Source: an uncultured Acidobacteriota bacterium (GTDB taxonomy: Bacteria; Acidobacteriota; UBA6911). Taken from it: 64,000 nucleotides of DNA. A program made the translations under genes and the position numbers. The number at the start of each line of letters is the position of its first letter. Position 1 is the stretch's first letter. The DNA is taken from positions 160,001 to 224,000 of the forward strand of contig CAWJKZ010000015.1 in NCBI GenBank assembly GCA_963843575.1, in the 5' to 3' direction. Positions 3,305-63,998 of the stretch are shown piece by piece. The notes beneath the pieces are model-generated. The model saw only the letters and a program-made list of their open reading frames with translations. It made no database searches and was not told the DNA's origin.

Positions 3305-5251
3305 ATGCGAGCATTTTCGGTGTATGGGGCGGCCGTTGTGGGCGCCTTCATTTTTGCGGCAGTGCCTGCCGGCTTCGCTTCGAGTCAGCCGATGAGCCTC
3401 ACGGCGGCTGTGGTCAGCAACGGCTGGCCAATTAAGAGATTCGTTTTGAACGACACGGGCGCGGTGGTATTCGCGGGTGGCGACTTCCAGGGGAGCGCCG
3501 ACGGGATTGTCTTCTCCGCCCCGTCCCGCTTTTACCGGCTCGCGAACCTCGGGTACGAGCCTCCCGGGTCCCCCGGGATGGTCTTCGCCGGTTTCCCCGG
3601 GCGGTATTTCGGCGATCTGGCCCTGAATCGGGCTGGGGACGTCGTCTTTTCCGCAAGCATGGTTGCCTGTGCGAGCTACGACCTGGAGTCCTGCCTCAGA
3701 ACGAGTCCCCGATTGAACGGCCTGTTCAGGATCCACAACGACCAGGGGAGCCGGATCGTCGTCGAAGGGGACTCGGTTCCCGACCACCCCGGCTACCTGT
3801 TCCGCTCTTTCGACCGGATCTGGCTGAACACGGGGAGCGACATCGCCTTCCGGGGCCACGTCTACGATCCTGCAAAGCCGTCGGAGTCGGTGGCCGGTCT
3901 GTTCGTTTACAGCGCGGGCCGGCTCCAGACCGTGGCCCTCGTCGAGACGACGCCGCGGAGACCGAGGACGGATGTGAATTCCCCGGGGTTCGAGCTGACG
4001 ATCGACGACGAGGCCAACGTGGTCTTCTTCAGCCCCCTTGCCGGCGCGGTATGCCGCTACTCAGGCGGAGTACTCTCGACCGTCCTATCGGCCGGCGCCT
4101 CGCTCGGGCCGGCCGAGACACTCACGAGCCTTCACGAGGCGGTCCCCAACCGAAACGGCGATATTGCGTTCCACGCATCGTTCGGCCCGGAGCCGGCGCA
4201 GCAGGGAATTTACCTGATGCGCCGCGACGGTAGCATCGAGCGCCTCCTGGCGGACGGGGATGCCACCCCGGCGGGAGGCCGGTTTGCGCTCTGGCGGGAA
4301 GAGACAGACCGCTTCGGCTACAAGCATCAGGTCATGGTCGGCACCTCGCTGCAACTGAACGACTCCGGGATGGTCCTATTCGTCACGCCCGTGCGCGAGG
4401 GACCGACGTCGGCCGGTTTATTTTCGTACCGGAAAGGGGAAATCTCGACCGTGGCCGCCGACGGCGATCCGCGGCCGGATGACCCGCGGCAGCGCATCAG
4501 CTTCGGCTTTCAGGGTCAGGACATCTCGTTCCTGCTGAACAACAACGGGATGACGGCCTTCAATCCGGCCGGAGCCGGGATTTTCCTCGCCCTGGACGGG
4601 AAGCGTGCCGCGGTCGCCCTCAACGGAGGCCCGACCGGCCCCGTGGAGGGGACCGAATACTCGATTCGCGAACTCAGGTCCTTCTCCCTGAACGAGTCGG
4701 GTACGGTCGCGTTGCAGGCCCCGCTCTGCTGCGGTCCCTATGTCGAGGGGATCTTTCTGGCGCGCCTTCGCCCCCCCGCAATCCCGAACGGCGGTTTTGA
4801 AGGGCCCGGCGATTTCAGACTCCCCCAGGCGTGGACGACCTGGTGGACGAACTCCGGCACCGGCGACGCCAGCCAGTACGACAGCGGGGGCCACGACTCG
4901 TTCGATTGGTACTCGAGCCTGAGACTCCACGTCGGCCCGGGCGGCGGATCCGTATTCGTGCTTTCCGACCCCACCGCCGTGACTCCCGGGACAACCTACC
5001 TCCTCGAGAGCCGCATGCGGTTCTTTTTCGACGCCGCCGCAGATACGGCCTATTTCACCGTGATCCAGTTCGACAGCGCGGGGGGTGTGGTCGGAGAGGA
5101 CGAGGTGCTTGGGGTGGCGGGCGACAGCCTCTGGACCTGGGAACCGAAGCGGCTCCTGATCTACACCGCGCCCAATGCCGCGTTTGTGCGGTACCGCTTC
5201 GGCCTCATCTCTCCGCACGAGAAATACCTCGACGTCGATTACCTGCACTAG
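3305..5251 (+). CDS. Secreted NxxGxxAF-repeat beta-propeller protein with a C-terminal CBM4/9-like domain
   Basis: Signal peptide; repeats LNRAGDVVF, LNTGSDIAF, PNRNGDIAF, LNDSGMVLF, LNNNGMTAF, LNESGTVAL; C-terminal domain begins IPNGGFE. Confidence 0.7.
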   Translation: MRAFSVYGAAVVGAFIFAAVPAGFASSQPMSLTAAVVSNGWPIKRFVLNDTGAVVFAGGDFQGSADGIVFSAPSRFYRLANLGYEPPGSPGMVFAGFPGRYFGDLALNRAGDVVFSASMVACASYDLESCLRTSPRLNGLFRIHNDQGSRIVVEGDSVPDHPGYLFRSFDRIWLNTGSDIAFRGHVYDPAKPSESVAGLFVYSAGRLQTVALVETTPRRPRTDVNSPGFELTIDDEANVVFFSPLAGAVCRYSGGVLSTVLSAGASLGPAETLTSLHEAVPNRNGDIAFHASFGPEPAQQGIYLMRRDGSIERLLADGDATPAGGRFALWREETDRFGYKHQVMVGTSLQLNDSGMVLFVTPVREGPTSAGLFSYRKGEISTVAADGDPRPDDPRQRISFGFQGQDISFLLNNNGMTAFNPAGAGIFLALDGKRAAVALNGGPTGPVEGTEYSIRELRSFSLNESGTVALQAPLCCGPYVEGIFLARLRPPAIPNGGFEGPGDFRLPQAWTTWWTNSGTGDASQYDSGGHDSFDWYSSLRLHVGPGGGSVFVLSDPTAVTPGTTYLLESRMRFFFDAAADTAYFTVIQFDSAGGVVGEDEVLGVAGDSLWTWEPKRLLIYTAPNAAFVRYRFGLISPHEKYLDVDYLH

Positions 5252-5358
5252 GGAGCGCGGCGCCTGGGCGCCATGCCGAATTGCGAGACGTGGCAAAATC
5301 TCCGTGAATGTACGGAGTTCTGTGTAGAATCGTCCCGTACCTTCGAAAGGAGTACGGC

Positions 5359-7764
5359 ATGATCCGGTCCTCCGTCTGTCTCGCCACAGTACTCTGCGTG
5401 ACCGGATGCGGCTTTCGGCCTGTTTCAGACTACGCGGTCACAGACGTGCCGCTCACCGCCGTCCGGCTGACCGACGGTTTCTGGGCGCCCCGACAGCAGA
5501 CGGACGTCCGGGTGACGATTGCGCACCAGATCAGGCAGAGTGAAGAGACCGGCCGGATCAAGAATTTCGAGCTCGCCGCGGACGCGCTGAAGGGGGCGAC
5601 CGGCGCGAAATGCGCTACCCGTTACGCCTTCGACGATTCCGACGTCTACAAGCTGATCGAGGCCGCGTCCTACACCCTGGTGCTGCAGCCGAACCCGTCG
5701 CTGGATAAGGTGTTGGACGATTGGATCGGGAAGATCGCGGCCGCGCAGGAGCCGGACGGCTACCTGTACACCGCCCGCACGATCGACCCCAGGCATCCAC
5801 CCTCCATGTCCGGCCCCGAACGGTGGGTCAAGCTTCAGGACAGCCACGAATTGTACAACCTGGGCCACCTCTACGAGGCGGCCGTCGCCCACCGCCAGGC
5901 GACCGGCAAGCGCACGCTCCTCGAGGTCGCGCTCAGGAGCGCCGACTTTGTCGGCGAGACTTTCGGGCCCGCCAAAGGGCAATTGAAGCTCGTGCCGGGG
6001 CACGAGGAAATCGAGATCGGCTTGGTCAAGCTCTACCGTGAGACGGGGAAACGCCGGTACCTGGAGTTGGCGAAGTTCTTCGTGGACGAACGCGGCGACG
6101 CGGGAGGACACGAGCTCTACGGCGAATACAACCAGGACCACAAGCCGGTGCTCGAGCAGACCGAAGCCGTCGGCCATGCCGTCCGTGCAGCCTACCTGTA
6201 CTCGGGAGTGGCCGACGTCTCCGCCCTGACCGGCGACCCGCGCTACATGGCCGCCCTGAACCGGATCTGGCAAGACATCGTCTCCCGAAAACTCTACTTG
6301 ACCGGGGGGATTGGCGCCGCCGGCGGGATCGAAGGGTTCGGACCCCCGTACGACCTCCCGAACGAAACGGGCTATGCGGAAACCTGCGCCACCATCGCCT
6401 ATGCGCTGTGGAACTACCGCATGTTCCGCTATCACGGGGACGCCAGGTACATGGACCTGTTTGAGCGTGCGGCCTACAACGCTTTCCTGTCGGGCTCCGG
6501 GCTGAGCGGAGACCGCTATTTCTATCCCAATCCGCTGGCGTCGTTTGGCCAGCACGAGCGCAGCCCCTGGTTCACCTGCGCGTGCTGCCCGCCGAACGTC
6601 GCTCGGTTCATAGCCGCGATGGGCGGGTTCGCCTATGGTGTCCAAGGGAACAAGGTGTACGTGAACCTGTACGCCCAGGGAACGGCTACCATCACGACAG
6701 CCGATGGGAAGGTCCGCCTCGAACAGAGCACCGAGTATCCCTGGAGCGGGAACATCAGGATACGTCTTTCCCCCGACAAGCCCGGCCGGCTCATCCTGAT
6801 GCTGCGCATACCGGGGTGGGCTGTGGGCCGGCCGCTCCCGAGCGGCCTGTACAGGTATGCCGGCGCAAGTGCGGGGCAGCCGGTTGTCAAGGTCAACGGC
6901 AAAAACGTCTCCTACGGCCTCGACAAGGGCTATGCCCCGATCGATCGAACCTGGTTCCGGGACGACATCGTTGAGGTCTTCCTGCCCATGGAGATTCGCC
7001 GCGTGCTGGCCGATGAACGCGTCAAGGCGGATGCCGGCCGCGTCGCGGTGGAACGCGGCCCGCTCGTCTATTGCGCGGAGTGGCCGGACAACGGCGGAGC
7101 GGTGTCCAACCTGGTCCTGGAAGACTCCACACCGCTCACCGCGGAACTGCGTCCGGACATTGCCCAGGGTGTCACGGCCGTGACCGGGGAGGCGACCGCG
7201 TATCGGCTCGAGGGCGGCAAAACCGTGTCCGCGAAGCAGCGGCTCACCTTGATCCCCTACTACGCCTGGGCGTACCGCGGCAAAGGTGAGATGACCGTTT
7301 GGCTGGCCCGCGAGCCCGCAAAGGCGCGCCCCGTTCCGGAACCGACACTCGCTTCCACCGCGCACGTGAGCGCTTCCGAGGGGATCCGTGGGCTCGAAGG
7401 CATCCACAACCTGCGCGGCCCGGAGAGTTCGGCCGACCAGGCAACCGGCTACGCCCACTGGTGGCCCAGAAAGGGGACGACGGAGTGGGTGCAATACGAT
7501 TTTGCCAGTCCGGTTATGCTGTCGGAATCGTCCGTTTACTGGTTTGACGACGCTCAAGAGGGCGAGTGCCGGGTCCCCGTCTCCTGGAGGATCCTCTACC
7601 GCGACCGCGGTTGGCTCCCGGTCAAGGCGGCGGGGCCCTTCGGCACTGCAGAGGATAAGTTCAACACCGTGCGCTTCGCTCCCGTCCGCACGACGGCGGT
7701 GCGACTCGAATTGCAGGCGCCCGCTGCCTTCTCGACGGGCATCCAGGAGTGGAGGATAAAATAG
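5359..7764 (+). CDS. GH127 beta-L-arabinofuranosidase-like protein (DUF1680) with a C-terminal discoidin-like domain
   Basis: FDDSDVYK, HELYNLGHLYEA, GHAVRA, YAETCA and CACCPPN motifs; AAGGAG RBS before ATG 5359. Confidence 0.9.
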   Translation: MIRSSVCLATVLCVTGCGFRPVSDYAVTDVPLTAVRLTDGFWAPRQQTDVRVTIAHQIRQSEETGRIKNFELAADALKGATGAKCATRYAFDDSDVYKLIEAASYTLVLQPNPSLDKVLDDWIGKIAAAQEPDGYLYTARTIDPRHPPSMSGPERWVKLQDSHELYNLGHLYEAAVAHRQATGKRTLLEVALRSADFVGETFGPAKGQLKLVPGHEEIEIGLVKLYRETGKRRYLELAKFFVDERGDAGGHELYGEYNQDHKPVLEQTEAVGHAVRAAYLYSGVADVSALTGDPRYMAALNRIWQDIVSRKLYLTGGIGAAGGIEGFGPPYDLPNETGYAETCATIAYALWNYRMFRYHGDARYMDLFERAAYNAFLSGSGLSGDRYFYPNPLASFGQHERSPWFTCACCPPNVARFIAAMGGFAYGVQGNKVYVNLYAQGTATITTADGKVRLEQSTEYPWSGNIRIRLSPDKPGRLILMLRIPGWAVGRPLPSGLYRYAGASAGQPVVKVNGKNVSYGLDKGYAPIDRTWFRDDIVEVFLPMEIRRVLADERVKADAGRVAVERGPLVYCAEWPDNGGAVSNLVLEDSTPLTAELRPDIAQGVTAVTGEATAYRLEGGKTVSAKQRLTLIPYYAWAYRGKGEMTVWLAREPAKARPVPEPTLASTAHVSASEGIRGLEGIHNLRGPESSADQATGYAHWWPRKGTTEWVQYDFASPVMLSESSVYWFDDAQEGECRVPVSWRILYRDRGWLPVKAAGPFGTAEDKFNTVRFAPVRTTAVRLELQAPAAFSTGIQEWRIK

Positions 7765-54362: not shown

Positions 54363-55304
54363 ATGGTCGAGCGGCGGCGGGTTCTCGGACGGACAGGGTT
54401 ATCGGTTCTCGATGTCGGCTTTGGCGCCTGGGCCATTGGAGGGGATAGGTCCGGCTGGGGCTATGGCCCTACCGACGATCGAACATCTTTGAGGGCTGCC
54501 GAAGCAGCACTCGATCAGGGATGCAATTTTTTTGATACTGCCGACTGGTACGGGCACGGACACAGCGAGGTTTTGCTGGGGAAGGCGCTCAATTCCAGAC
54601 GCTCCGACGCGGTCATTGCCACCAAGGGGGGACTTGACTTCTACCACGGATCAGTGGGCGCAAATTTCCACCCCGCATACCTTCGCTTTGCACTCCACCA
54701 GAGCCTTCGACGCCTGCAGACCGACCATGTTGATGTTTATCAGCTTCATAATCCGCCGCCTGAGATAATCCACAGTTCGACGGTCGTCGACGAACTGAAA
54801 CGTTTGCAGAGCCAAGGCAAAATCCGCTGGCTCGGGATCTCGGCTGCTACAGTCCAAGACGGACTATCTGCCATCGACGCCCTTTGGCCGGACACCATTC
54901 AGATTGCGTATAACATGTTGGCTCCCCAGGCCGCAGCGACGCTTTTCCCCTTGGCCGATGCTCGCGGGGTTGGAGTGATCGCCAGGGAGCCACTGGCCAA
55001 CGGCTTTCTATCGGGGAAATACGGAGTGAACGCGTCTTTCCCGCCGAGCGACATCCGCAGCCATTGGCCTCCCGAGGTCCTCTGGGATGTCGTGAATCGG
55101 GTGCAGATGCTTGCGCCCTATTGCCGGCCGGGAGAAACGATGGCTCAACTGGCCATCCGTTTTGCGCTCGAACCACGTGCTGTGTCCGTGGTGGTCTGTG
55201 GCTGCAAGACTCCTGAGCATGTTGCAGAAAACTTTCGTCAAACCTCAGTCCATACTCAAGCCACTATGAAATCTACGCTGATGAACCGGGAGGTACCGTT
55301 ATGA
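54363..55304 (+). CDS. Aldo/keto reductase
   Basis: LGRTGLSV, FFDTADWYGHGHSE, ATK, SLRRLQTDHVDVYQLH and PLANGFLSGK motifs; stop overlaps the next start (ATGA). Confidence 0.9.
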   Translation: MVERRRVLGRTGLSVLDVGFGAWAIGGDRSGWGYGPTDDRTSLRAAEAALDQGCNFFDTADWYGHGHSEVLLGKALNSRRSDAVIATKGGLDFYHGSVGANFHPAYLRFALHQSLRRLQTDHVDVYQLHNPPPEIIHSSTVVDELKRLQSQGKIRWLGISAATVQDGLSAIDALWPDTIQIAYNMLAPQAAATLFPLADARGVGVIAREPLANGFLSGKYGVNASFPPSDIRSHWPPEVLWDVVNRVQMLAPYCRPGETMAQLAIRFALEPRAVSVVVCGCKTPEHVAENFRQTSVHTQATMKSTLMNREVPL

Positions 55305-55738
55305 ACGAAACTACGGCCCAACAATCGGCTGGAACATGGGGAAGCCCTGGGGCGTCGCCACAAATGGCGAGCCCGTGCAACATTGCCTCCCTCGCGCCGT
55401 TTCCCCCAATGCTGCAGGAGGCGGTCATGCAAACGGTCCTGGAGGCCAAGTGCGAAAGGGCCACTGATATCTGGTACGACGACGAGGCCAACAAGTCCCT
55501 CGTTGTCATGCGTCTCGGCGTCCAATGGCAGTTGAACGAGACGGCGAGGGCGCTCTGGCTCCGTCTCGGGAAGCGCGTGGGAGAAATCGTCGATGAATTA
55601 AGTAAGGAATACCCCGGCACGGATTCTCAGCAGATCAAATATCTCACCGTTGAGTTCGTTCTGAACGCGACCTCGCACGGGATTGTTGATCTTGTCTCGG
55701 AGCCGCCTGGAGAAAAGGCCAAGAAGAAGCAGTCTTAG
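55301..55738 (+). CDS. Stand-alone PqqD-family RiPP recognition element (RRE)
   Basis: Three beta-strand-like segments, then LNETARALW..L...VGEIVDELSKEY...VEFV......GIV, matching the PqqD winged-helix pattern; GGAGG RBS. Confidence 0.78.
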   Translation: MNETTAQQSAGTWGSPGASPQMASPCNIASLAPFPPMLQEAVMQTVLEAKCERATDIWYDDEANKSLVVMRLGVQWQLNETARALWLRLGKRVGEIVDELSKEYPGTDSQQIKYLTVEFVLNATSHGIVDLVSEPPGEKAKKKQS

Positions 55739-55842: not shown

Positions 55843-57330
55843 ATGCAACGACACACGATCGACCAGTCCACGTGTTTTGTCCCGTGGCCAACGAACGGGC
55901 GAACAGCCGGGAATGGCGCGATCAGAATCCGGTTGTTTCAACGCGTGGTTGCTCCGTGGACTCAGCCCACCGCCGTCTGGGAGTTCGGACCGCTCACCGG
56001 CTCCGTGGAGGGATTGGATATCTCCTTATGGCGATTCGACCTCCGTTCGATGCGTCTGCGCAGCAGTCAAGGCACGTGCCTGGCTCATACGTTTAGCGAG
56101 GCGAAAAATCTCGATTTTTCGGAACGTATGGTGCTTGAAGTATCGTCATCGACGGTCGGGGGGGCGGGATGGTCTCAATTCGAGGTGGATCTGTTTGTGC
56201 CGCCGGACGAGCTTGATGGGATGAAACGCCGGCTCCGGCTCAGCCGGGTCCCCCCGATCGAATGGTTTTTTGTTGAGCTGACCAACCGATGCAATTTCCG
56301 GTGTGCCTGGTGTCCCAGCGTAAAGATGGCGCGGGGACGCGGCGCCATGCCGCTGGCTCGAGCCAAGGTCTTAATGGAGGAGATCGCCGCCTATCGACGG
56401 CGCCATCCTCTGTTCTCCCTATACGCACAGATCCAGAATCCGGTGTTCCTGCACGTCATGGGCGAGCCTCTCCTGCACCCCGATTTTTTTGAAATCGTCC
56501 GACACGGCCAGGATCTCGGACTGAACTTCTGCCTGGTCACCAATGCGAGCCTCATCAAAGGGGAGATGGTTCGCCGGCTGCTGGAAAGCAACTTGAATTC
56601 GATCGTCCTGAGCCTCAACGCTCCGGACGAGGCCTCCTTCTCTCAAGCGCGTGCCCCCCTTTCGTACGGCCGTCTGGTTGCACAGGTTCAGGAGCTTGTG
56701 CGGGAGCGGTATCGGCGCGGCAGCACGCTTCCGCGCCTGGAGCTTCAACTCATCAATTCCAAACGGGTCCGCTGGTCGGCCTTCCCCCTGGTGGACGAAC
56801 CTGAGCAGGTGGCGCGGCAACTCGTGTTCTGGTCGGATTTCGTGCAGTCGCTGGAGAAAGCGAGCGGTGTCATCTCCTGTGGGCTCGAACCCGCCGAGGC
56901 AGCGCGCTGGCAGACCGTCCTGGAGCGCGAGACCAACGATCGGGGCATCTACTTCGAACTGGGACTGAACCTGTCGCTGACTTTCAAGCTGGCCTGCAAC
57001 TTCGGCAACGAGCTGTTGCCGGACCACCTGAAGGTGCTTGAGACCTCCAGCGGGGTCTGCCACTTCAGGAACGCCTATCGGACGTTTTGCGTGTTCTGGG
57101 ACGGCTCTTGTACTTTTTGTTCGCTTGATTACGACAACGAAGTCAATCTGGGCAATGTCTTTGAACAAGGCATCGATGCGATCTGGACAGGTGAGAGTCT
57201 CACCCGAATCCGCGGTCTGGCCGAACACGGCGTTCTGGCCGAACCGCTGTGTCGCCGTTGCATGGGCACCCTGGTGCCGAGCCGAGTCGCTCGAGAGCCA
57301 TCCGTCCCGAAGGGAGACATCCATGGCTGA
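55843..57330 (+). CDS. Radical SAM enzyme with a Twitch/SPASM-type C-terminus and a ~135-aa N-terminal extension
   Basis: ELTNRCNFRCAWC (CX3CX2C); MGEPLLHP; C-terminal C...WDGSCTFC..D....LGN...CRRC. Confidence 0.9.
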   Translation: MQRHTIDQSTCFVPWPTNGRTAGNGAIRIRLFQRVVAPWTQPTAVWEFGPLTGSVEGLDISLWRFDLRSMRLRSSQGTCLAHTFSEAKNLDFSERMVLEVSSSTVGGAGWSQFEVDLFVPPDELDGMKRRLRLSRVPPIEWFFVELTNRCNFRCAWCPSVKMARGRGAMPLARAKVLMEEIAAYRRRHPLFSLYAQIQNPVFLHVMGEPLLHPDFFEIVRHGQDLGLNFCLVTNASLIKGEMVRRLLESNLNSIVLSLNAPDEASFSQARAPLSYGRLVAQVQELVRERYRRGSTLPRLELQLINSKRVRWSAFPLVDEPEQVARQLVFWSDFVQSLEKASGVISCGLEPAEAARWQTVLERETNDRGIYFELGLNLSLTFKLACNFGNELLPDHLKVLETSSGVCHFRNAYRTFCVFWDGSCTFCSLDYDNEVNLGNVFEQGIDAIWTGESLTRIRGLAEHGVLAEPLCRRCMGTLVPSRVAREPSVPKGDIHG

Positions 57331-58606
57331 AGTGCTGCTGATCAATCCACCGATGTGGTCCCCAAAAGCCCACAGCTCTTTCACGGGGCTGTGCCCGCCC
57401 TTGGGTCTCGGGTATCTCGCCGCCTGCCTCCAACGGGAGGGCATCGGCGTCGATATTCTGGATTTGGACGTCAGTCCGGATCCTGATGCGGAACTGCGAC
57501 AGGCGTTTGCCCATCGGGCGCCTCGCTTGGTGGGCATTACCAGCCTTACGCAGAACCACTTCCTCGCCTTGCATGTGGCGCGGGCCGTAAAGGCCATGAA
57601 CAGCAAGACCCTGGTCGCCATCGGCGGTCCCCACGTTTCCTACCGTTGGGACGAGGCATTGGCACAACCCGCCATCGACGTCGTCGTGCTCTTTGAGGGT
57701 GAACGCACAATTGTCGAACTCTACCGGCAGGCGCAGCAGGAACAACCGGATTGGAGCGGCATTGCCGGCATCGCCTACCGGAATGGGGGGCATAATGAGC
57801 TGACTTCTCCCAGACCCCGCGAGCAAGAACTGGACCGCATCCCGCATCCGGCGCGCCATCTGCTGCCGATGGGCCGTTACGGAAGGCCCGGCACGATCAT
57901 GACCAGCCGCGGCTGTCCGATGAAGTGCATTTTCTGCATCTCCAGTACCTACGAGGGATGCTACCGCCCGCGCAGCGCGGATGACGTCGTCGAAGAACTC
58001 ACAGTGCTCCGGCACACCTGGGGCCTGCGGGAAGTCTACCTGTTGGACAATGTCTTCACAGTCGACAGTGCCCGGGTACAGAGCATCTGTGCGCAGATTA
58101 TCGAACGGAAACTCGGCATCCGGTTTCACTGTGTGTCACGGGCGGATTACATGACCGAGGAGCTCGCTCGCTGCCTCAAGGCCGCCGGATGCGAACGCAT
58201 CGAGATCGGTGTGGAATCGGGGTCGCAGGAAATCATCGAGGCTTTGAAAAAGCACATTACCCTGGAGCAGGTGTTTCGAGCCGCAGACCTCGTCCTGGGC
58301 GCGGGCATGCAGCCCATGTTCACCTTTCAGATCGGTTCTCCCTTCGAGACCGCCGCCTCACTGGAAAAGACCCATCAGCTCGCGGCTGACTTGCGCTCCA
58401 AAGGGGCCATCACCTTCTTCTCAGTCATGACCCCTTATCCGGGAACGCCCTTCGCTGAACGTGCGGAGGAACTCGGGGTCGTGATCCGAGCGAAGGACTG
58501 GCGGGAGTTCCGGACATCCAACCCTATATGCGACATGCGCTATCTGAATTGCAACAGTTTGCGTCAGGCTTTATACAGGGAATTTCCCCTGCTGCAAGAC
58601 CGCTAG
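57323..58606 (+). CDS. Cobalamin-dependent (class B) radical SAM enzyme, probable methyltransferase
   Basis: VLLINPP, PPLGLGYLAA and GGPH (B12-binding domain); TSRGCPMKCIFC; GVESGS; PYPGT. Start overlaps the upstream gene end; GGAG RBS. Confidence 0.9.
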   Translation: MAEVLLINPPMWSPKAHSSFTGLCPPLGLGYLAACLQREGIGVDILDLDVSPDPDAELRQAFAHRAPRLVGITSLTQNHFLALHVARAVKAMNSKTLVAIGGPHVSYRWDEALAQPAIDVVVLFEGERTIVELYRQAQQEQPDWSGIAGIAYRNGGHNELTSPRPREQELDRIPHPARHLLPMGRYGRPGTIMTSRGCPMKCIFCISSTYEGCYRPRSADDVVEELTVLRHTWGLREVYLLDNVFTVDSARVQSICAQIIERKLGIRFHCVSRADYMTEELARCLKAAGCERIEIGVESGSQEIIEALKKHITLEQVFRAADLVLGAGMQPMFTFQIGSPFETAASLEKTHQLAADLRSKGAITFFSVMTPYPGTPFAERAEELGVVIRAKDWREFRTSNPICDMRYLNCNSLRQALYREFPLLQDR

Positions 58607-59704
58607 ATGCGGTCAATACCGCGAGGCACACCCACCGTGACCGGGCCAAGACAGGGCGAAGCCCCGGGATCTCCAGACCACCTTTACCTCGAGATCACGG
58701 ATCGCTGTAATCTCGGGTGCAAGCACTGCTATCTGGGGGCGCACCCCGGCGGCAGGCACATGATGCAGGGCCGGGCTGTGCGCGCAGCGCTGTCGGACTT
58801 TGCCGCCATGGGCGGTCGCACCGTTTCGTTCAGCGGTGGTGAACCGCTGTTGCATCCCGAGTGGAAATCGTTGCTGGCACACGCGGCTCGGCTCGGCCTC
58901 GGGTGCACGTTGATCACGAACGGCACCATGCTCGACAAGGAGGCGATTGACGCCTCGGTGCGTCTGGGCGCGAGGATTGCGCTAAGTATCGACGGGAGTC
59001 AGGCCGCGACCCACGACGCGATTCGGGGCCGCGGGAACTTCGCGCGGGTCCAGACGGCTCTGAAGAATCTCGGGGCGATTGGAGCACAAGGGCAGGTGAT
59101 TGTCTGCTTCACACCCATGAGACGGAATCTGAACGATTTAATTCCTTTGGCCAAAGCGCTCCACCGGGACGGATTTCATCAGCTCTACGTGTCCCTCCTG
59201 GAAGATCGTGGCCGGAAACGAGCCCACGATCGGGAGCTGTCGCTGGACACTGGGGAGCGGGTTCGTTTGTTGACCCAGTTGGTCCTCTTGCTCACCGACC
59301 CGAGCCTGGCAATGCACGTGGATACAGGCCATCTGACGTATTTTTTTGAGCGCCTCCTGGGAAAACCGGATGGGCTCGGCGACCCGATTGAGGGAACCTT
59401 GCGTGTGGCCCCTACGGGCCAAGTCTACCTGAGCGCGTATGTGGATGATGAGGCATTCCGTTTGGGAAGTCTGCAGGAAGCAAACCTGCGGGAGTGCTTC
59501 CTGTCGGAGCGCGTCCGTGTCCTTTATGCGCAAGCCAGAGAACGGCAGGACGGTCTGCCGGCATGTCGCGATTGCCCGCACTGGATCGTGTGTGGTGGTG
59601 GCAGCCCCGCTCGCGCGTATGCGAACAACGGCTGTTTGTCCACCCCGGACGAATTCTGCGAGGCTAAACGTATCTTTCTGGAGCGATGGTACCGTGCAGT
59701 GTGA
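58607..59704 (+). CDS. Radical SAM / SPASM peptide maturase-like enzyme
   Basis: EITDRCNLGCKHC; SGGEPLLH; SIDG...HDAIRG.GNF; C-terminal CRDCPHWIVC...C; directly abuts the upstream stop (TAGATG). Confidence 0.9.
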   Translation: MRSIPRGTPTVTGPRQGEAPGSPDHLYLEITDRCNLGCKHCYLGAHPGGRHMMQGRAVRAALSDFAAMGGRTVSFSGGEPLLHPEWKSLLAHAARLGLGCTLITNGTMLDKEAIDASVRLGARIALSIDGSQAATHDAIRGRGNFARVQTALKNLGAIGAQGQVIVCFTPMRRNLNDLIPLAKALHRDGFHQLYVSLLEDRGRKRAHDRELSLDTGERVRLLTQLVLLLTDPSLAMHVDTGHLTYFFERLLGKPDGLGDPIEGTLRVAPTGQVYLSAYVDDEAFRLGSLQEANLRECFLSERVRVLYAQARERQDGLPACRDCPHWIVCGGGSPARAYANNGCLSTPDEFCEAKRIFLERWYRAV

Positions 59705-59869
59705 AAGCTGCAGGTACCGCGCCCGGTAAGTTGCTTTAAAAAGTTCAGGGATGCCCATGCGTGCTGTGCACCCCGTGTCTGAGGCAGCCTCCCGGAGGGA
59801 GCATTTATTTCCAATACAAGTCGGAGGCGGCCGGTATCTCCAAACCATAACCGAGGAGAGGAGTTTGTC

Positions 59870-60859
59870 ATGACCGACGAACAACGGATATTCGTACCAC
59901 CGAGTGCCACGGGTTTGACCGCAATGAATCCGGCAGGCGGTGTCCGCATGGGCTACGCCATGGGCGGGGCTCAGAGGATGGCACCCATGATGGGTGGCGT
60001 CCGCATGGGCTACCCCATGGGCGGAACTCAAATGATGTCCCCTATGATGGGTGGTGTGCGCATGGGCTACCCGGCCGTCATGGGATACGTAATGGACGTG
60101 TCGGGCGGTGCGGGCATGATGCCGCGCATGGGAGGAGTCCGCATGGGCTACCCGATGGGCGGTACTCAGATGATGTCCCCCATGATGGGAGGAGTCCGCA
60201 TGGGCTATCCCATGGGCGGTGCTCAGATGATGTCCCCCATGATGGGTGGTGTGCGTATGGGCTACCCATCCGTCATGGGATATGGCGCCGGTGCCGACGT
60301 GACAGGCGGCGCGCGCATGGGAGGAGTCCGCATGGGCTATCCCATGGGCGGTACTCAGATGATGTCCCCCACAATGGGGGGAGTCCGCATGGGCTATCCC
60401 ATGGGCGGTTCTCAAATGATGGCGCCCTCGATGGGTGGCGTGCGCATGGGATACCCTGCCGTCATGGGATATGGCGCCGGCGCGGACGTGACGGGCGGCG
60501 CGCGCATGGGAGGAGTCCGCATGGGCTACCCCACCATGGGCGGTACTCAGATGATGTCCCCCACCATGGGAGGAGTCCGCATGGGCTACCCCATGGGCGG
60601 TTCTCAAATGATGGCGCCCTCGATGGGTGGCGTGCGCATGGGATACCCTGCCGTCATGGGATATGGCGCCGACGTGAACGTGGCGGGCGGCGCGGGCATG
60701 GGAGGAGGCGGTTCTCAGATGATGTCACCCATGATGGGAGGAGTCCGCATGGGCTACCCCATGGGCGGTTCTCAGATGATGTCACCCATGATGGGAGGAG
60801 TCCGCATGGGCTACCCCATGGGCACGCAGCAAATGGGTAGTTTCCGAATGGGAATGTAG
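59870..60859 (+). CDS. Putative multi-core RiPP precursor / Met-Gly-rich repeat protein (14 x GGVRMGY)
   Basis: Strong GAGGAG RBS; 22-aa non-repetitive leader; repeats invariant in protein but varying at synonymous codon positions; lies downstream of an RRE and three radical SAM genes. Confidence 0.82.
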   Translation: MTDEQRIFVPPSATGLTAMNPAGGVRMGYAMGGAQRMAPMMGGVRMGYPMGGTQMMSPMMGGVRMGYPAVMGYVMDVSGGAGMMPRMGGVRMGYPMGGTQMMSPMMGGVRMGYPMGGAQMMSPMMGGVRMGYPSVMGYGAGADVTGGARMGGVRMGYPMGGTQMMSPTMGGVRMGYPMGGSQMMAPSMGGVRMGYPAVMGYGAGADVTGGARMGGVRMGYPTMGGTQMMSPTMGGVRMGYPMGGSQMMAPSMGGVRMGYPAVMGYGADVNVAGGAGMGGGGSQMMSPMMGGVRMGYPMGGSQMMSPMMGGVRMGYPMGTQQMGSFRMGM

Positions 60860-61029: not shown

Positions 61030-61815
61030 ATGACGACCCTGTGCCTCCATTCAAAGCCTGAAATGGAGGCCTTTCTCCGCCACAATACCTACTTGCATCT
61101 TTATGAGATCGGTGACCTGGACGACTTCTTCTGGCCGCGGACCCTATGGTATGGCCTGAAGGACAGAGGCCAGATTACCCAACTCGTCTTACTTTACACT
61201 GGAGCATCTCCTCCCGCCTTGCTTGGTTTCACCGAGGGGCCCATAGAGGAAATGGCAGAGTTGCTGCGATCTATCATCCCTCTTCTCCCCAAACGTTTTC
61301 TTGCTCATCTCAGTCTGAATCTGGCGGCGGTATTTGCAGACGACTACCAAATCCAATCGCACGGCACGTTCCATAAGATGGCGCTGACCCGCCCCTCATG
61401 CCTGGAAGGAGTGGACACGTCTGCAGTCGACTCTATGACGCTGTCCGACATCGATGATCTACAAAGGCTCTACCGCGCAAGCTATCCGGGGAATTGGTTC
61501 GATCCGCGGATGGTCGGGACTGGCTACTTCTATGGCATACACCGCGATACCGAGCTTGTGAGCGTCGCCGGGGTGCATGTATACTCCGCACATTACAGAA
61601 TCGCCGCGTTAGGCAGCGTAACAACACACCCGAACTATTGCAAACAGGGCTTGGCAACTGCAGTTTGTGCCAAACTCACCAAGTCGTTGATGGGGAGTGT
61701 GGAACATATCGGGCTGAACGTGGAAGCCGGCAACGCGAGCGCCATACGTTTGTATGAGAAACTCGGATTTGAAGGTGTCGCTGCGTATGGAGAGTATGCC
61801 TTCGAGTGGAAGTGA
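61030..61815 (+). CDS. GNAT-family N-acetyltransferase (C-terminal FR47-like domain)
   Basis: LGSVTTHPNYCKQGLAT (acetyl-CoA motif A) and LNVEAGNASAIRLYEKLGF. Confidence 0.85.
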   Translation: MTTLCLHSKPEMEAFLRHNTYLHLYEIGDLDDFFWPRTLWYGLKDRGQITQLVLLYTGASPPALLGFTEGPIEEMAELLRSIIPLLPKRFLAHLSLNLAAVFADDYQIQSHGTFHKMALTRPSCLEGVDTSAVDSMTLSDIDDLQRLYRASYPGNWFDPRMVGTGYFYGIHRDTELVSVAGVHVYSAHYRIAALGSVTTHPNYCKQGLATAVCAKLTKSLMGSVEHIGLNVEAGNASAIRLYEKLGFEGVAAYGEYAFEWK

Positions 61816-62420: not shown

Positions 62421-63254
62421 TCACTCCTGACGCCTCGAGGCAATAGCGTAGAGGGTTGCCTTCAGCTCAAAGGGGGTCAGATAGGGGTGCTTGGAGAGAA
62501 CCAGCGACACAATGCCTGAGATGTGCGGTGCGGCGAAGCTGGTGCCGGTAACCGTCTTATAACCGCCGCCCGCCCAGGGCGCACGAATATTGGTGCCGGG
62601 AGCGGCTAACTCGATTCGATTCCCGTAACGATAGGCGAAGGTGAACGAGTCGCCCCCCTGCAAGTTTCCGACCGAGATCAGAGACGAGAAGATGGATGGG
62701 AAACTCGGAGGGGGGACGTTGTTGGCCGCCGCCACGAGAATTGAGCGGCCGAAATAGGCAAGATCCGTCAGCTCATGCAACTGGGAGAAGTACTCCTCCC
62801 TCGTTGTGCCCAAGCTGAGGTTGACCACGTCCATTCTGTTCTCAATGGCCCAACGAAGGCCCAGGAGAAAAGCCTCACCGGTTCCGCCGCAGGACGGGCC
62901 GAGGACTTTGACGCTGAACAGTTCCACGTCAGGCGCGATGCCCTTGATGATGCCGGCACACGCCGTGCCGTGCCCAAAAGCATCGGTAAAACTGCAGGGA
63001 AGCAGTTGGGGCCCCGACGGAGTCATCCACACATCTACGCCCCCCTTCACGCTGCCCGTGATGTCCGGATGGGAGGCGTCGATGCCGCTGTCGACAACCG
63101 CCACTCTGATACCTCTTCCCGTGGAGTCTCCCCAGGCATTCTCAGGAGCCGCGAGTCGGGAAATGGGCCCATCGAGCCTCGAGTACACACTGCCCGAGTT
63201 CGCCGGCTGATGTCCCTGAAACCTCTGATTGCCTGTTGTGCCTCTGAGGGGCAT
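62421..63254 (-). CDS. Minimal cytoplasmic S8 (subtilisin-like) serine protease
   Basis: Catalytic triad motifs VVDSG, HGTAC and GTSFAAP; no signal peptide and only a short N-terminal segment. Confidence 0.9.
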   Translation of the reverse strand: MPLRGTTGNQRFQGHQPANSGSVYSRLDGPISRLAAPENAWGDSTGRGIRVAVVDSGIDASHPDITGSVKGGVDVWMTPSGPQLLPCSFTDAFGHGTACAGIIKGIAPDVELFSVKVLGPSCGGTGEAFLLGLRWAIENRMDVVNLSLGTTREEYFSQLHELTDLAYFGRSILVAAANNVPPPSFPSIFSSLISVGNLQGGDSFTFAYRYGNRIELAAPGTNIRAPWAGGGYKTVTGTSFAAPHISGIVSLVLSKHPYLTPFELKATLYAIASRRQE

Positions 63255-63266
63255 GGGTTGGGCTTT

Positions 63267-63998
63267 CTACCTTCTCAATGAGCCGCCGAGACTCAGGGGG
63301 CGGAACTCCAATCGCGCGTGAACCGCATTCAGGATGTCGAGGCACAGCTGCGCATCTTGCGGCCTTCGTGTGACAATGCTGACGATCCTGGTCGCAATCT
63401 CTAACGCCATCCTGTACTCGTGTGAGGCGCTAGCCCTTTCGAGACCTGAAGCCATCGCCGCCACCACCTCCCGTGAGCCGGGGACGATATCCGTTGCCCC
63501 CAACCTCTCCTTGGCCGCTGCCAGCAACGACTGCCCTAGCAAGAACATATGGCGCTTCTCCACAGCCGCTCCCACGATCGTGGCGAACTGTGTGAGAAGC
63601 TCCATATCCTGCTCGGAAAAACCCCCTCCACCGACTTTGTTCACAGTCTCCAGGACGCCTAACACGCTGGATCCGGAAACTATCGGCACAGCAAGGATGG
63701 AGTGGGTTGCAAACTGAATGGCCTCGGAAATGGACCGGTTCCACTGTGCGTTTTCCGCCAGATCTTGCACGTTCAGTGGCTGGCCGCTGGCCACCACAAA
63801 GCCAGCGATGCCCTGGCCAATCGCCACTTTGAAGTGTTTTAATTCATCCGCCTTCTCTCCATGAACGGCAGAGAAGACAAGTTGGGTCCCGGTTTCGTCG
63901 AGGAGGAGGATCGATCCGCCCTCCGCCTCGACGGAGACCGTGGCCACGCTGATAATGGTATCCAGAAGTTCCTCTGATTCCGGGGATGGCTTGAGCAT
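63267..63998 (-). CDS. GAF-domain protein (N-terminus may lie beyond the window)
   Basis: SILLLD, GQGIAGFV, SILAVPI, GVLETVNK...FSEQD (NKFDE-like GAF signature). Confidence 0.82.
   Translation of the reverse strand: MLKPSPESEELLDTIISVATVSVEAEGGSILLLDETGTQLVFSAVHGEKADELKHFKVAIGQGIAGFVVASGQPLNVQDLAENAQWNRSISEAIQFATHSILAVPIVSGSSVLGVLETVNKVGGGGFSEQDMELLTQFATIVGAAVEKRHMFLLGQSLLAAAKERLGATDIVPGSREVVAAMASGLERASASHEYRMALEIATRIVSIVTRRPQDAQLCLDILNAVHARLEFRPLSLGGSLRR

Follow-up and report, generated by a model that had tools for sequence, protein, structure and literature searches.

The window analysed here is a 64,000-nucleotide stretch of the genome of an uncultured Acidobacteriota bacterium (contig CAWJKZ010000015.1, positions 160,001 to 224,000 of the forward strand), and all coordinates given without a locus name are positions within it. 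Near its end, seven successive genes lie on the plus strand, overlapping or separated by short gaps, and encode an aldo/keto reductase, a stand-alone PqqD-family protein, three radical S-adenosylmethionine (SAM) enzymes, a Met/Gly-rich repeat protein and a GNAT acetyltransferase. The analysis is centred on the last of the three radical SAM enzymes, rSAM-C (58607..59704, +), a 365-aa protein that has the SPASM fold in full but none of the ligands for the proximal auxiliary iron-sulfur cluster (AuxI). It was assigned from its open reading frame, its PF04055 match, an AlphaFold2 model and Foldseek.

Cysteine pattern and fold of rSAM-C

In a word-based search, 132 proteins matched rSAM-C at E<=1e-10, and 120 of them were listed. 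Alignment A1 was built from 41 of the listed matches and the window protein (42 sequences, with the 285-aa fragment P0026 left out), and alignment A2 from the window protein and 31 relatives at 33-76% identity (32 sequences). The radical SAM cluster site, a CX3CX2C motif formed by C34, C38 and C41 (58706..58729, +), was read directly from the DNA and is invariant in 42 of 42 sequences in A1 and 32 of 32 in A2, and the SGGEP motif is invariant alongside it in the clade.

The SPASM motif is defined as CX9-15GX4C-gap-CX2CX5CX3C-gap-C (PMC6231123). In anSME, the AuxI ligands are C255, C261, C276 and C330 according to the Fig. 6 legend of that paper, and in the description of AhbD the first three Cys of the C-terminal motif bind the distal cluster (AuxII) and the fourth binds AuxI (PMC10452713). 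In rSAM-C this C-terminal motif reads C320-R-D-C323-P-H-W-I-V-C329-G-G-G-S333, followed after 17 residues by C351. Its first part (59564..59605, +) thus holds C320-x2-C323-x5-C329-x3-S333, that is, three AuxII ligands and a Ser replacing the fourth (AuxI) Cys, as seen in the DNA, in A1 and A2 and in the alignment to anSME. C351 (59657..59659, +), the fourth AuxII ligand, is invariant in both alignments, aligns with C348 of anSME and is preceded by the invariant D348. The beta-hairpin region with the replaced AuxI ligands (59381..59434, +) was located through alignments to the sister clade (WCP / YPC), anSME and CteB and reads GLGD259PIEGTLRVAPTGQVYLS276 overall. Here, D259 (59381-59383) takes the place of the pre-hairpin Cys and S276 (59432-59434) that of the hairpin Cys; the hairpin itself is TGQVYLS, ending at S276, and the pre-hairpin stretch GLGDPIEGTLRV contains no Cys. 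A first-pass annotation, made from the letters of the window, had described the motif as CRDC-PHWIV-C-GGG-S-X17-C with a TGQVYLS hairpin and a Cys-free pre-hairpin stretch, and the DNA agrees with it exactly.

Profile alignment of the clade to anSMEcpe (4K37) placed C255 at Asp259, C276 at position 276 (Ser or Thr) and C330 at S333, with C261 falling in a four-residue loop that is deleted in the rSAM-C clade, while C317, C320, C326 and C348 aligned with C320, C323, C329 and C351 of rSAM-C. A single-sequence alignment to CteB gave the same ligand equivalences, the Cys of its GCG and YPC stretches corresponding to Leu/Gly-Asp and Ser. Because these alignments agree with the published ligand assignments, rSAM-C is considered to lack every AuxI ligand and to hold a complete AuxII set, which confirms what the first-pass annotation had claimed. 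Two further Cys lie in the C-terminal part, C297 (LRECF) and C343 (NNGC), and had been named as ligands by which AuxI might be bound in another way; they are Cys in 18 and 4 of the 32 sequences in A2, respectively, and hence not conserved.

The AlphaFold2 model computed on A1 is full-length and confident, with a mean predicted local distance difference test of 93.1 and a predicted template modelling (TM) score of 0.90, and disorder is confined to residues 1-17. Both strands of the hairpin (264-267 and 272-275) are present, as are the helices that follow, and the fold is of the anSME/CteB type. Against the PDB, Foldseek ranked anSMEcpe 4K37 first (E 3.5e-18, TM score 0.74, range 0.73-0.75, over about 373 aligned columns, range 367-378), followed by CteB (5WHY), ChlB, SkfB, SuiB and PqqE; identity to anSME and CteB was 17-24%. 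Around the former AuxI site, T264, R266, A277 and Y278 are invariant, clade-specific residues in A2.

With 83 bits for PF04055 against a cut-off of 29.5, rSAM-C belongs to the radical SAM superfamily. The SPASM family PF13186 gave no match at E<=0.01 for the window protein or for its orthologue in an unrelated genome, G475; some clade members have a precomputed or weak PF13186 match. By the seven-cysteine motif rSAM-C is not a SPASM enzyme, just four of the motif Cys being present, and by structure it is one, since the modelled protein has the full-length C-terminal fold, the hairpin and the helices bearing the AuxII site. It is not a Twitch protein either: a Twitch domain is a shortened SPASM domain with one auxiliary cluster, at the AuxI position, whereas here the domain is untruncated and the retained ligands are of the AuxII type. 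Scores against NCBIfam were 101.2 bits for MftC (TIGR03962, cut-off 265), 90.8 for AhbD (TIGR04545, cut-off 500) and 95.1 for TIGR04053 (cut-off 395), and no NCBIfam family reached its cut-off for rSAM-C or for ten other AuxI-less proteins.

Conservation and phylogeny of the AuxI-less clade

In A2, the replaced AuxI positions are occupied by a narrow set of residues. Position 259 is Asp in 28, Glu in 3 and Gln in 1 of the 32 sequences, position 276 is Thr in 26 and Ser in 6, and position 333 is Ser in 28, Asn in 2, Val in 1 and Cys in 1. The hairpin and pre-hairpin Cys are absent from 32 of 32 sequences and the fourth motif Cys from 31 of 32, the one Cys being that of P0028; as this protein retains the fourth Cys only, the hairpin ligands were presumably lost first. 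C320, C323, C329 and C351 each occur in 32 of 32 sequences. Besides C297, the only non-ligand columns with at least eight Cys are C100 (8) and C167 (32), and P0013, P0016 and P0019 have just four Cys beyond residue 240. C167 (59105-59107), in the VCFTP stretch of core strand beta-5, is variable in the sister clade and is replaced by Ala in the G475 orthologue. The next matches of rSAM-C form a canonical sister group (24-32% identity, 413-506 aa, mostly with a PF05402 PqqD domain), in which each of the three AuxI positions that can be aligned is a Cys in all of the 20 sequences.

In a tree of 66 rows computed without the three trait columns, the 32 AuxI-less sequences form one clade with a support of 97 in the Shimodaira-Hasegawa-like approximate likelihood ratio test (SH-aLRT). 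Two state changes occur in total, the second being the pair P0108 and P0115 beside the canonical P0061. Both proteins carry Ser at the hairpin and fourth-motif positions, and P0115 is labelled as a TIGR04053 family member of Haloarchaeobius. As judged from the alignment and from the position of the pair in this tree and in a second, larger one, the two proteins, of the AhbD-like AuxII-only group or a similar one, show an independent loss of AuxI apart from the rSAM-C clade.

When 1.84 billion representatives were scanned in full with the A2 profile (HMMER), 2,988 proteins were detected at E<=1e-30. Among the best 150 of these 2,988, 125 cover all six key positions: 95 are canonical, 18 lack both the hairpin and the fourth-motif Cys with AuxII intact, 8 lack the hairpin Cys only and 4 have an incomplete AuxII. 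Eight of the 18 AuxI-less proteins are N-terminally extended and 438-470 aa long, with PqqD scoring above the Pfam cut-off in P0193, P0195 and P0213 and below it in P0190. In a tree of 82 rows, a single clade (SH-aLRT 95) unites all 18 proteins with the G475 orthologue and the window protein, and within it the long forms branch early; the labels of P0212, a fragment, and P0059, which is canonical in the MAFFT alignment, are unreliable and were not counted. The simplest reading of these trees is a single loss of AuxI in a PqqD-fused ancestor, which would have been followed by diversification and then by loss of the fused PqqD in the branch of the window protein.

The proposal of the first-pass annotation that the pattern was selected rather than decayed is supported by the monophyly found in both trees, the conserved replacements, the intact radical SAM motifs and the confident model. 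The loss of AuxI in rSAM-C is a derived trait that its monophyletic clade conserves, not a sign of decay. Neither of the findings named by the annotation as contrary to its proposal was made, the alternative Cys not being conserved and close homologues, apart from P0028 with its fourth Cys, not retaining the canonical ones.

The eight proteins that lack the hairpin Cys alone (P0202, P0209, P0218, P0222, P0229, P0249, P0278 and P0309) carry Gln, Ser, Thr, Ala, Asn or Asp in its place and keep the fourth-motif Cys and AuxII. Six of them fall into two small groups within one branch of the 82-row tree that also contains canonical proteins, and P0278 and P0309 lie elsewhere among the canonical rows. 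These proteins may hold a three-ligand AuxI with an open site.

The operon, its repeat protein and its distribution

The gene that follows rSAM-C encodes a Met/Gly-rich repeat protein of 329 aa (59870..60859, +), preceded by the ribosome-binding stretch GAGGAGAGGAG. It contains 14 GGVRMGY units, 13 of them with Pro next (GGVRMGYP), which are arranged in a higher-order period of 189 nt. Gly and Met account for 26 and 23% of its residues, respectively, and Cys, Trp, His and Lys do not occur. The repeat copies differ in their synonymous codons, for example in GTC/GTG, in TAC/TAT and in the Gly codon of the first position, for which all four are used, and the encoded peptide stays constant, which speaks for selection on the motif as translated. 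A degenerate DNA pattern for the motif was found 13 times in the genome G000 and 23 times in G475, in every case inside the two repeat genes, and the reversed control occurred 0 times. The repeat protein has no Pfam or NCBIfam family match, and the motif VRMGYP had no match in the searchable literature, to which papers outside it and supplements may add. The protein is probably a precursor of the multi-core kind, or else one that is modified in place, and it probably serves as the multi-core substrate of rSAM-C.

The genes upstream of rSAM-C begin with the aldo/keto reductase (54363..55304, +; 313 aa; PF00248, E 7e-55), the first conserved gene of the operon, with 59% identity to the first gene of the G475 locus. 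Its stop overlaps by 4 nt the start of the stand-alone PqqD-family protein (55301..55738, +; 145 aa), which scored 34.8 bits for PF05402 against a cut-off of 23.4 and whose G475 orthologue (44% identity) matches PF05402 too. This protein is likely the peptide-recognition element. A BLASTP comparison of it with the N-termini of the sister proteins P0034 and P0040 detected no similarity, and there is thus no Rosetta-stone argument.

The PqqD gene is followed by rSAM-A (55843..57330, +), a radical SAM protein of 495 aa with a Twitch-like C-terminal domain, identified from PF04055, PF13186, its conserved Cys and a match to BtrN. Alignment A3 combines it with 27 of 45 matches (28 sequences; the fragments P0160 and P0166 and the short, distant P0170-P0184 were left out). 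In A3, conservation is complete for C406 and C426 and 90% or higher for C385, C470 and C473, and the proteins end 10-25 residues past the C470-x2-C473 pair. The best PDB match of rSAM-A is BtrN (E 5.5e-15), of which the hairpin Cys and the CKNC stretch align with C426 and C470/C473. Since the Cys set, the C-terminal truncation and the BtrN alignment agree, the single-cluster, Twitch-like set that the first-pass annotation had attributed to this gene product is borne out at the level of its sequence. Relatives of rSAM-A are labelled by their sources as Acidobacteria, Pseudomonadota or Dissulfurirhabdus. Residues 1-140 (55843-56260) form an N-terminal domain that is common to the relatives, has no Pfam match and contains a conserved W-E-F and an L-D-x-x-S-V-R-L stretch; it could be a peptide-binding module of rSAM-A's own.

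A B12-binding radical SAM enzyme (57320..58606, +; 428 aa; PF02310 and PF04055; 56% identity to its G475 orthologue) lies between the genes of rSAM-A and rSAM-C. The gene shares its first 11 nt with the end of rSAM-A, and rSAM-C begins directly after its stop; the best NCBIfam matches of the protein, BchE and ApyD, are far below their cut-offs. Downstream of the repeat gene follows the GNAT acetyltransferase (61030..61815, +; 261 aa; Pfam GNAT matches), whose membership of the system is uncertain and which is missing from the G475 locus. Promoter and terminator scans found no more sites than in shuffled sequence. Just downstream, a subtilase (PF00082) with no obvious signal peptide (62421-63254, -) and a GAF-domain protein (63267-63998, -) are encoded; as neither gene is found at the G475 locus, a leader-peptidase role is just a guess.

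The G475 locus was detected with an rSAM-A profile in a search of 401 genomes of the order of genome G425, the one that carries locus L004; the single match was in G475. The 19.5 kb around it (L134) contain the same six genes in the same order as the window, with identities of 59, 44, 49, 56, 51 and 49% in operon order (range 44-59%). Its rSAM-C orthologue is AuxI-less (GDLGDPIEG...IFLTAY...CNSCPYWIICGGGS...PDEFC). As in the window, the repeat gene comes after that of rSAM-C (L134 11216-11947, +), and encodes 243 aa from a start behind AAAGGAGG, with 23 GGVRMGYP units and one GGVRMESL unit. The G475 rSAM-A is identical letter for letter to P0146, which one source labels Desulfococcus multivorans; no paper combining Desulfococcus multivorans, radical SAM and a precursor peptide was found, and papers outside the coverage of the search may hold more.

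A 489-aa His/Ala/Gly-rich open frame runs antisense to the repeat gene (59138-60607, -), with matching antisense frames in G475 (L134 11228-11965 and 11239-11928). Rather than genes, these frames are apparently by-products of the repeat.

In seven further cases, an rSAM-C homologue and an rSAM-A homologue have longest contigs of the same size (5167, 5825, 5873, 5829, 5984, 20595 and 21897 bp) and overlapping sources, which is an indirect sign that the members of each pair share a contig. Among 40 relatives, including a genome of the same genus that is 81% complete, no AuxI-less member was detected with this query besides the window. A sample of 400 genomes of the phylum likewise yielded no AuxI-less member; of nine matches, seven were canonical PqqD-fused proteins and two (L128 and L130) are long fusion frames whose SPASM part was not inspected. 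A scan of genome contigs with the single rSAM-C sequence yielded relatives at up to 44% identity in short N-terminal segments and no clade member, and a metagenome scan yielded one close locus, L042, at 59%. The distribution of the system is sporadic.

At L042, positions 4046-5469 hold a near-copy of P0009 that starts at the equivalent of residue 68, without the CX3CX2C part, and directly abuts a GNAT-like gene on the opposite strand. The arrangement is either a rearrangement or an assembly chimera.

In three genomes of the same phylum, a gene for a protein of 914-1005 aa with a signal-like N-terminus (L141 3242-5986, -; L143 2678-5695, -; L142 8833-11688, +) lies close to that of the canonical PqqD-fused sister enzyme, suggesting that the sister clade is part of another conserved system.

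Proposed function, alternatives and known systems

With a probability of about 0.7, rSAM-C is held to be an intact enzyme with a complete SPASM fold that works with its SAM cluster and AuxII alone, having undergone a loss of AuxI that is fixed in its clade, and that acts on a Cys-free repeat substrate in a step without AuxI. It would hold [4Fe-4S] clusters at two sites, that of SAM and the distal AuxII, and the proximal AuxI site is replaced by the conserved Asp/Glu - Thr/Ser - Ser set. The clade may belong to the RiPP maturases, which act on a ribosomal peptide with the help of an RRE/PqqD partner and have a precursor gene close by: the conserved operon holds genes for a PqqD and a repeat protein, and PqqD is fused to basal clade members. 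The repeat protein would be the substrate, presented by the PqqD protein, and each GGVRMGYP unit would undergo three or more radical steps, one of them carried out by rSAM-C. No other cluster lies as near to the active site as AuxI, which in CteB is bound to a Cys of the substrate (PMC6231123), and such thiol anchoring is described for CteB and for ranthipeptide or sactipeptide synthases (PMC6231123; PMC10452713); as the repeat protein is free of Cys, this role of AuxI would not be needed. An oxidative step should be harder to complete inside rSAM-C, where the substrate radical would have no cluster next to it, so that a redox-neutral or externally quenched step is weakly favoured. This might be the abstraction and return of an H-atom, or a radical step in which the electron leaves elsewhere, and the oxidative step may be carried out by the Twitch enzyme rSAM-A with its AuxI-type cluster. 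AuxII may have been retained because the C-terminal domain needs it to fold, because it exchanges electrons with outside partners, or for both reasons; in PapB, the second auxiliary cluster is proposed to mediate intermolecular electron transfer (PMC10470005).

Several observations weigh against this reading. Removal of AuxI Cys destabilised AhbD (PMC10452713), and the loss of AuxI is therefore not trivially tolerated. The link to the repeat protein was seen at two full loci, those of the window and G475, and a word-based search with the repeat protein returned 0 matches at E<=0.001, not even the protein itself, an uninformative outcome that is probably due to a composition filter. The deeper clade members (P0027-P0033 and P0185-P0213) have no rSAM-A homologue with a same-size longest contig. 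A role of C167 as an H-atom donor, as in an epimerase, was considered and dropped, the idea being weakened by the Ala of the G475 orthologue at that position.

In line with an idea of the first-pass annotation, the two enzymes could also form a heteromer, in which the AuxI-type cluster of the Twitch enzyme rSAM-A and the AuxII of rSAM-C rebuild the two-cluster relay of a SPASM protein. Their Cys sets are complementary, and the genes occur together in the window and in G475, with the seven contig-size pairs in addition; however, the same co-occurrence is expected of two enzymes that act in turn on one substrate. Such a heteromer is unlikely, given that each protein has its own complete SAM site, and that deeper AuxI-less members lack an rSAM-A on a same-size contig, some of them looking self-sufficient with their fused PqqD. 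To our knowledge there is no precedent for a heteromer of two radical SAM enzymes. A complex prediction for rSAM-C (A2) and rSAM-A (A3) scored 0.00, a value for which controls were not run and which speaks neither for nor against binding.

Since AuxI is held to be the catalytically relevant auxiliary cluster, its absence could mark rSAM-C as a non-catalytic relic or scaffold, for instance a peptide chaperone for the other two radical SAM enzymes. This appears rather improbable, as CX3CX2C and SGGEP are invariant in 32 sequences down to 33% identity, which would be unexpected if SAM chemistry had been lost.

There is little to recommend a former AuxI site that still binds metal, be it one metal ion or an oxygen-ligated cluster on Asp259, Ser/Thr276 and Ser333. 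The residues that replace the three ligands are conserved, not random, but we know of no [4Fe-4S] cluster with three oxygen ligands and no Cys, and position 333 tolerates Asn and Val, and position 259 Gln. Single Asp or Ser ligands to iron-sulfur clusters are known, with Asp on the AuxII of PqqE and Ser in LipA (PMC6231123), whereas the parallel case in AhbD was modelled as a plain hydrogen-bond network (PMC10452713). Equally hard to maintain is the view that rSAM-C works on a small molecule of the tetrapyrrole type, like AhbD or NirJ, instead of maturing peptides: N-terminal halves score against AhbD, NirJ and TIGR04053, P0024 and P0098 are labelled 'Fe-coproporphyrin III synthase' by one source and AuxII-only forms are reported in AhbD, but all scores are far under the curated cut-offs (for AhbD, 90.8 against 500), the best full-length matches are the peptide maturases MftC and StsB, genes for PqqD and the repeat protein are part of the operon, and a PqqD domain is fused to basal members of the clade.

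The reading of rSAM-C as a working AuxII-only enzyme extends to a more tentative proposal on the clade as a whole. It might represent a distinct class of peptide-modifying SPASM enzymes without a cluster beside the active site; in this operon, its member together with a Twitch radical SAM enzyme and a B12-binding one would modify every GGVRMGYP unit of a protein with 14-23 repeats. If this were true, a new family of poly-modified ribosomal products would be at hand, and the separate roles of AuxI and AuxII could be read in a natural system. AuxI has been viewed as a substrate anchor or proximal oxidant and AuxII has been called enigmatic (PMC10452713, PMC10114670, PMC10470005), and mutants in which AuxI is removed tend to aggregate (PMC10452713). 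A natural clade that is without AuxI and never without AuxII would offer stable proteins for asking what AuxII itself does, and one such system, that of G475, apparently comes from a cultured organism, as indicated by the label of P0146. The operon points to an undescribed ribosomal product with up to 23 identical units and three radical SAM enzymes.

Among characterized enzymes, anSMEcpe (4K37) and CteB (5WGG/5WHY) share with rSAM-C the full-length fold, the four AuxII Cys, the beta-hairpin and the SPASM helices, the clade profile spanning anSME residues 12-359, but rSAM-C lacks every AuxI ligand. The Twitch enzymes BtrN, SkfB and MoaA have a single auxiliary cluster, as is predicted for rSAM-C; in contrast to them, the domain of rSAM-C is full length and retains the ligands of AuxII, the opposite cluster. 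Within the operon, it is rSAM-A that is Twitch-like. MftC and StsB (NF045574), which are canonical enzymes with two auxiliary clusters, gave the best full-length NCBIfam alignments (residues 25-351 and 25-342, E ~6e-29). They work with a PqqD-type partner or domain, as the kind to which rSAM-C belongs probably does, but the 101 bits of rSAM-C compare with cut-offs of 265 and 625.

The closest parallel to the ligand pattern is found in archaeal non-methanogenic AhbDs, in which the AuxII Cys alone are conserved and the AuxI positions are two Ser and one Glu (PMC10452713). In the published model, the carboxylate hydrogen-bonds to both Ser hydroxyls at the former AuxI site, and according to that 2023 paper none of these AuxII-only AhbDs had been studied biochemically (PMC10452713). 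The conserved Asp/Glu, Thr/Ser and Ser of the rSAM-C clade parallel this Glu and two Ser, although AhbD acts on a tetrapyrrole and the rSAM-C clade is PqqD-associated and lies beside a repeat protein. The closing discussion of the AhbD paper is the sole description of a natural AuxII-only SPASM protein that was found, and papers outside the literature covered may hold more (PMC10452713). What the aligned proteins show here is a conserved, clade-wide replacement of AuxI in a peptide-maturase-like SPASM enzyme. Repeat-motif precursors of radical SAM-SPASM enzymes are already known.

Such a precursor occurs in the poly-cyclopropylglycine system TvgA/TvgB, where a radical SAM-SPASM enzyme acts on a precursor with repeated TVGG (PMC9062424). 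The window operon resembles it in the short-motif repeat, GGVRMGYP here against TVGG there, the substrate role here being a proposed one. The two differ in the motif and in gene content, the tvg operon having one radical SAM enzyme, a dioxygenase and transporters, and 14-23 repeats are found here in proteins of 243-329 aa. The structure of the tvg-related TigE (8VPO) is a distant match to the rSAM-C model, at Foldseek rank 28.

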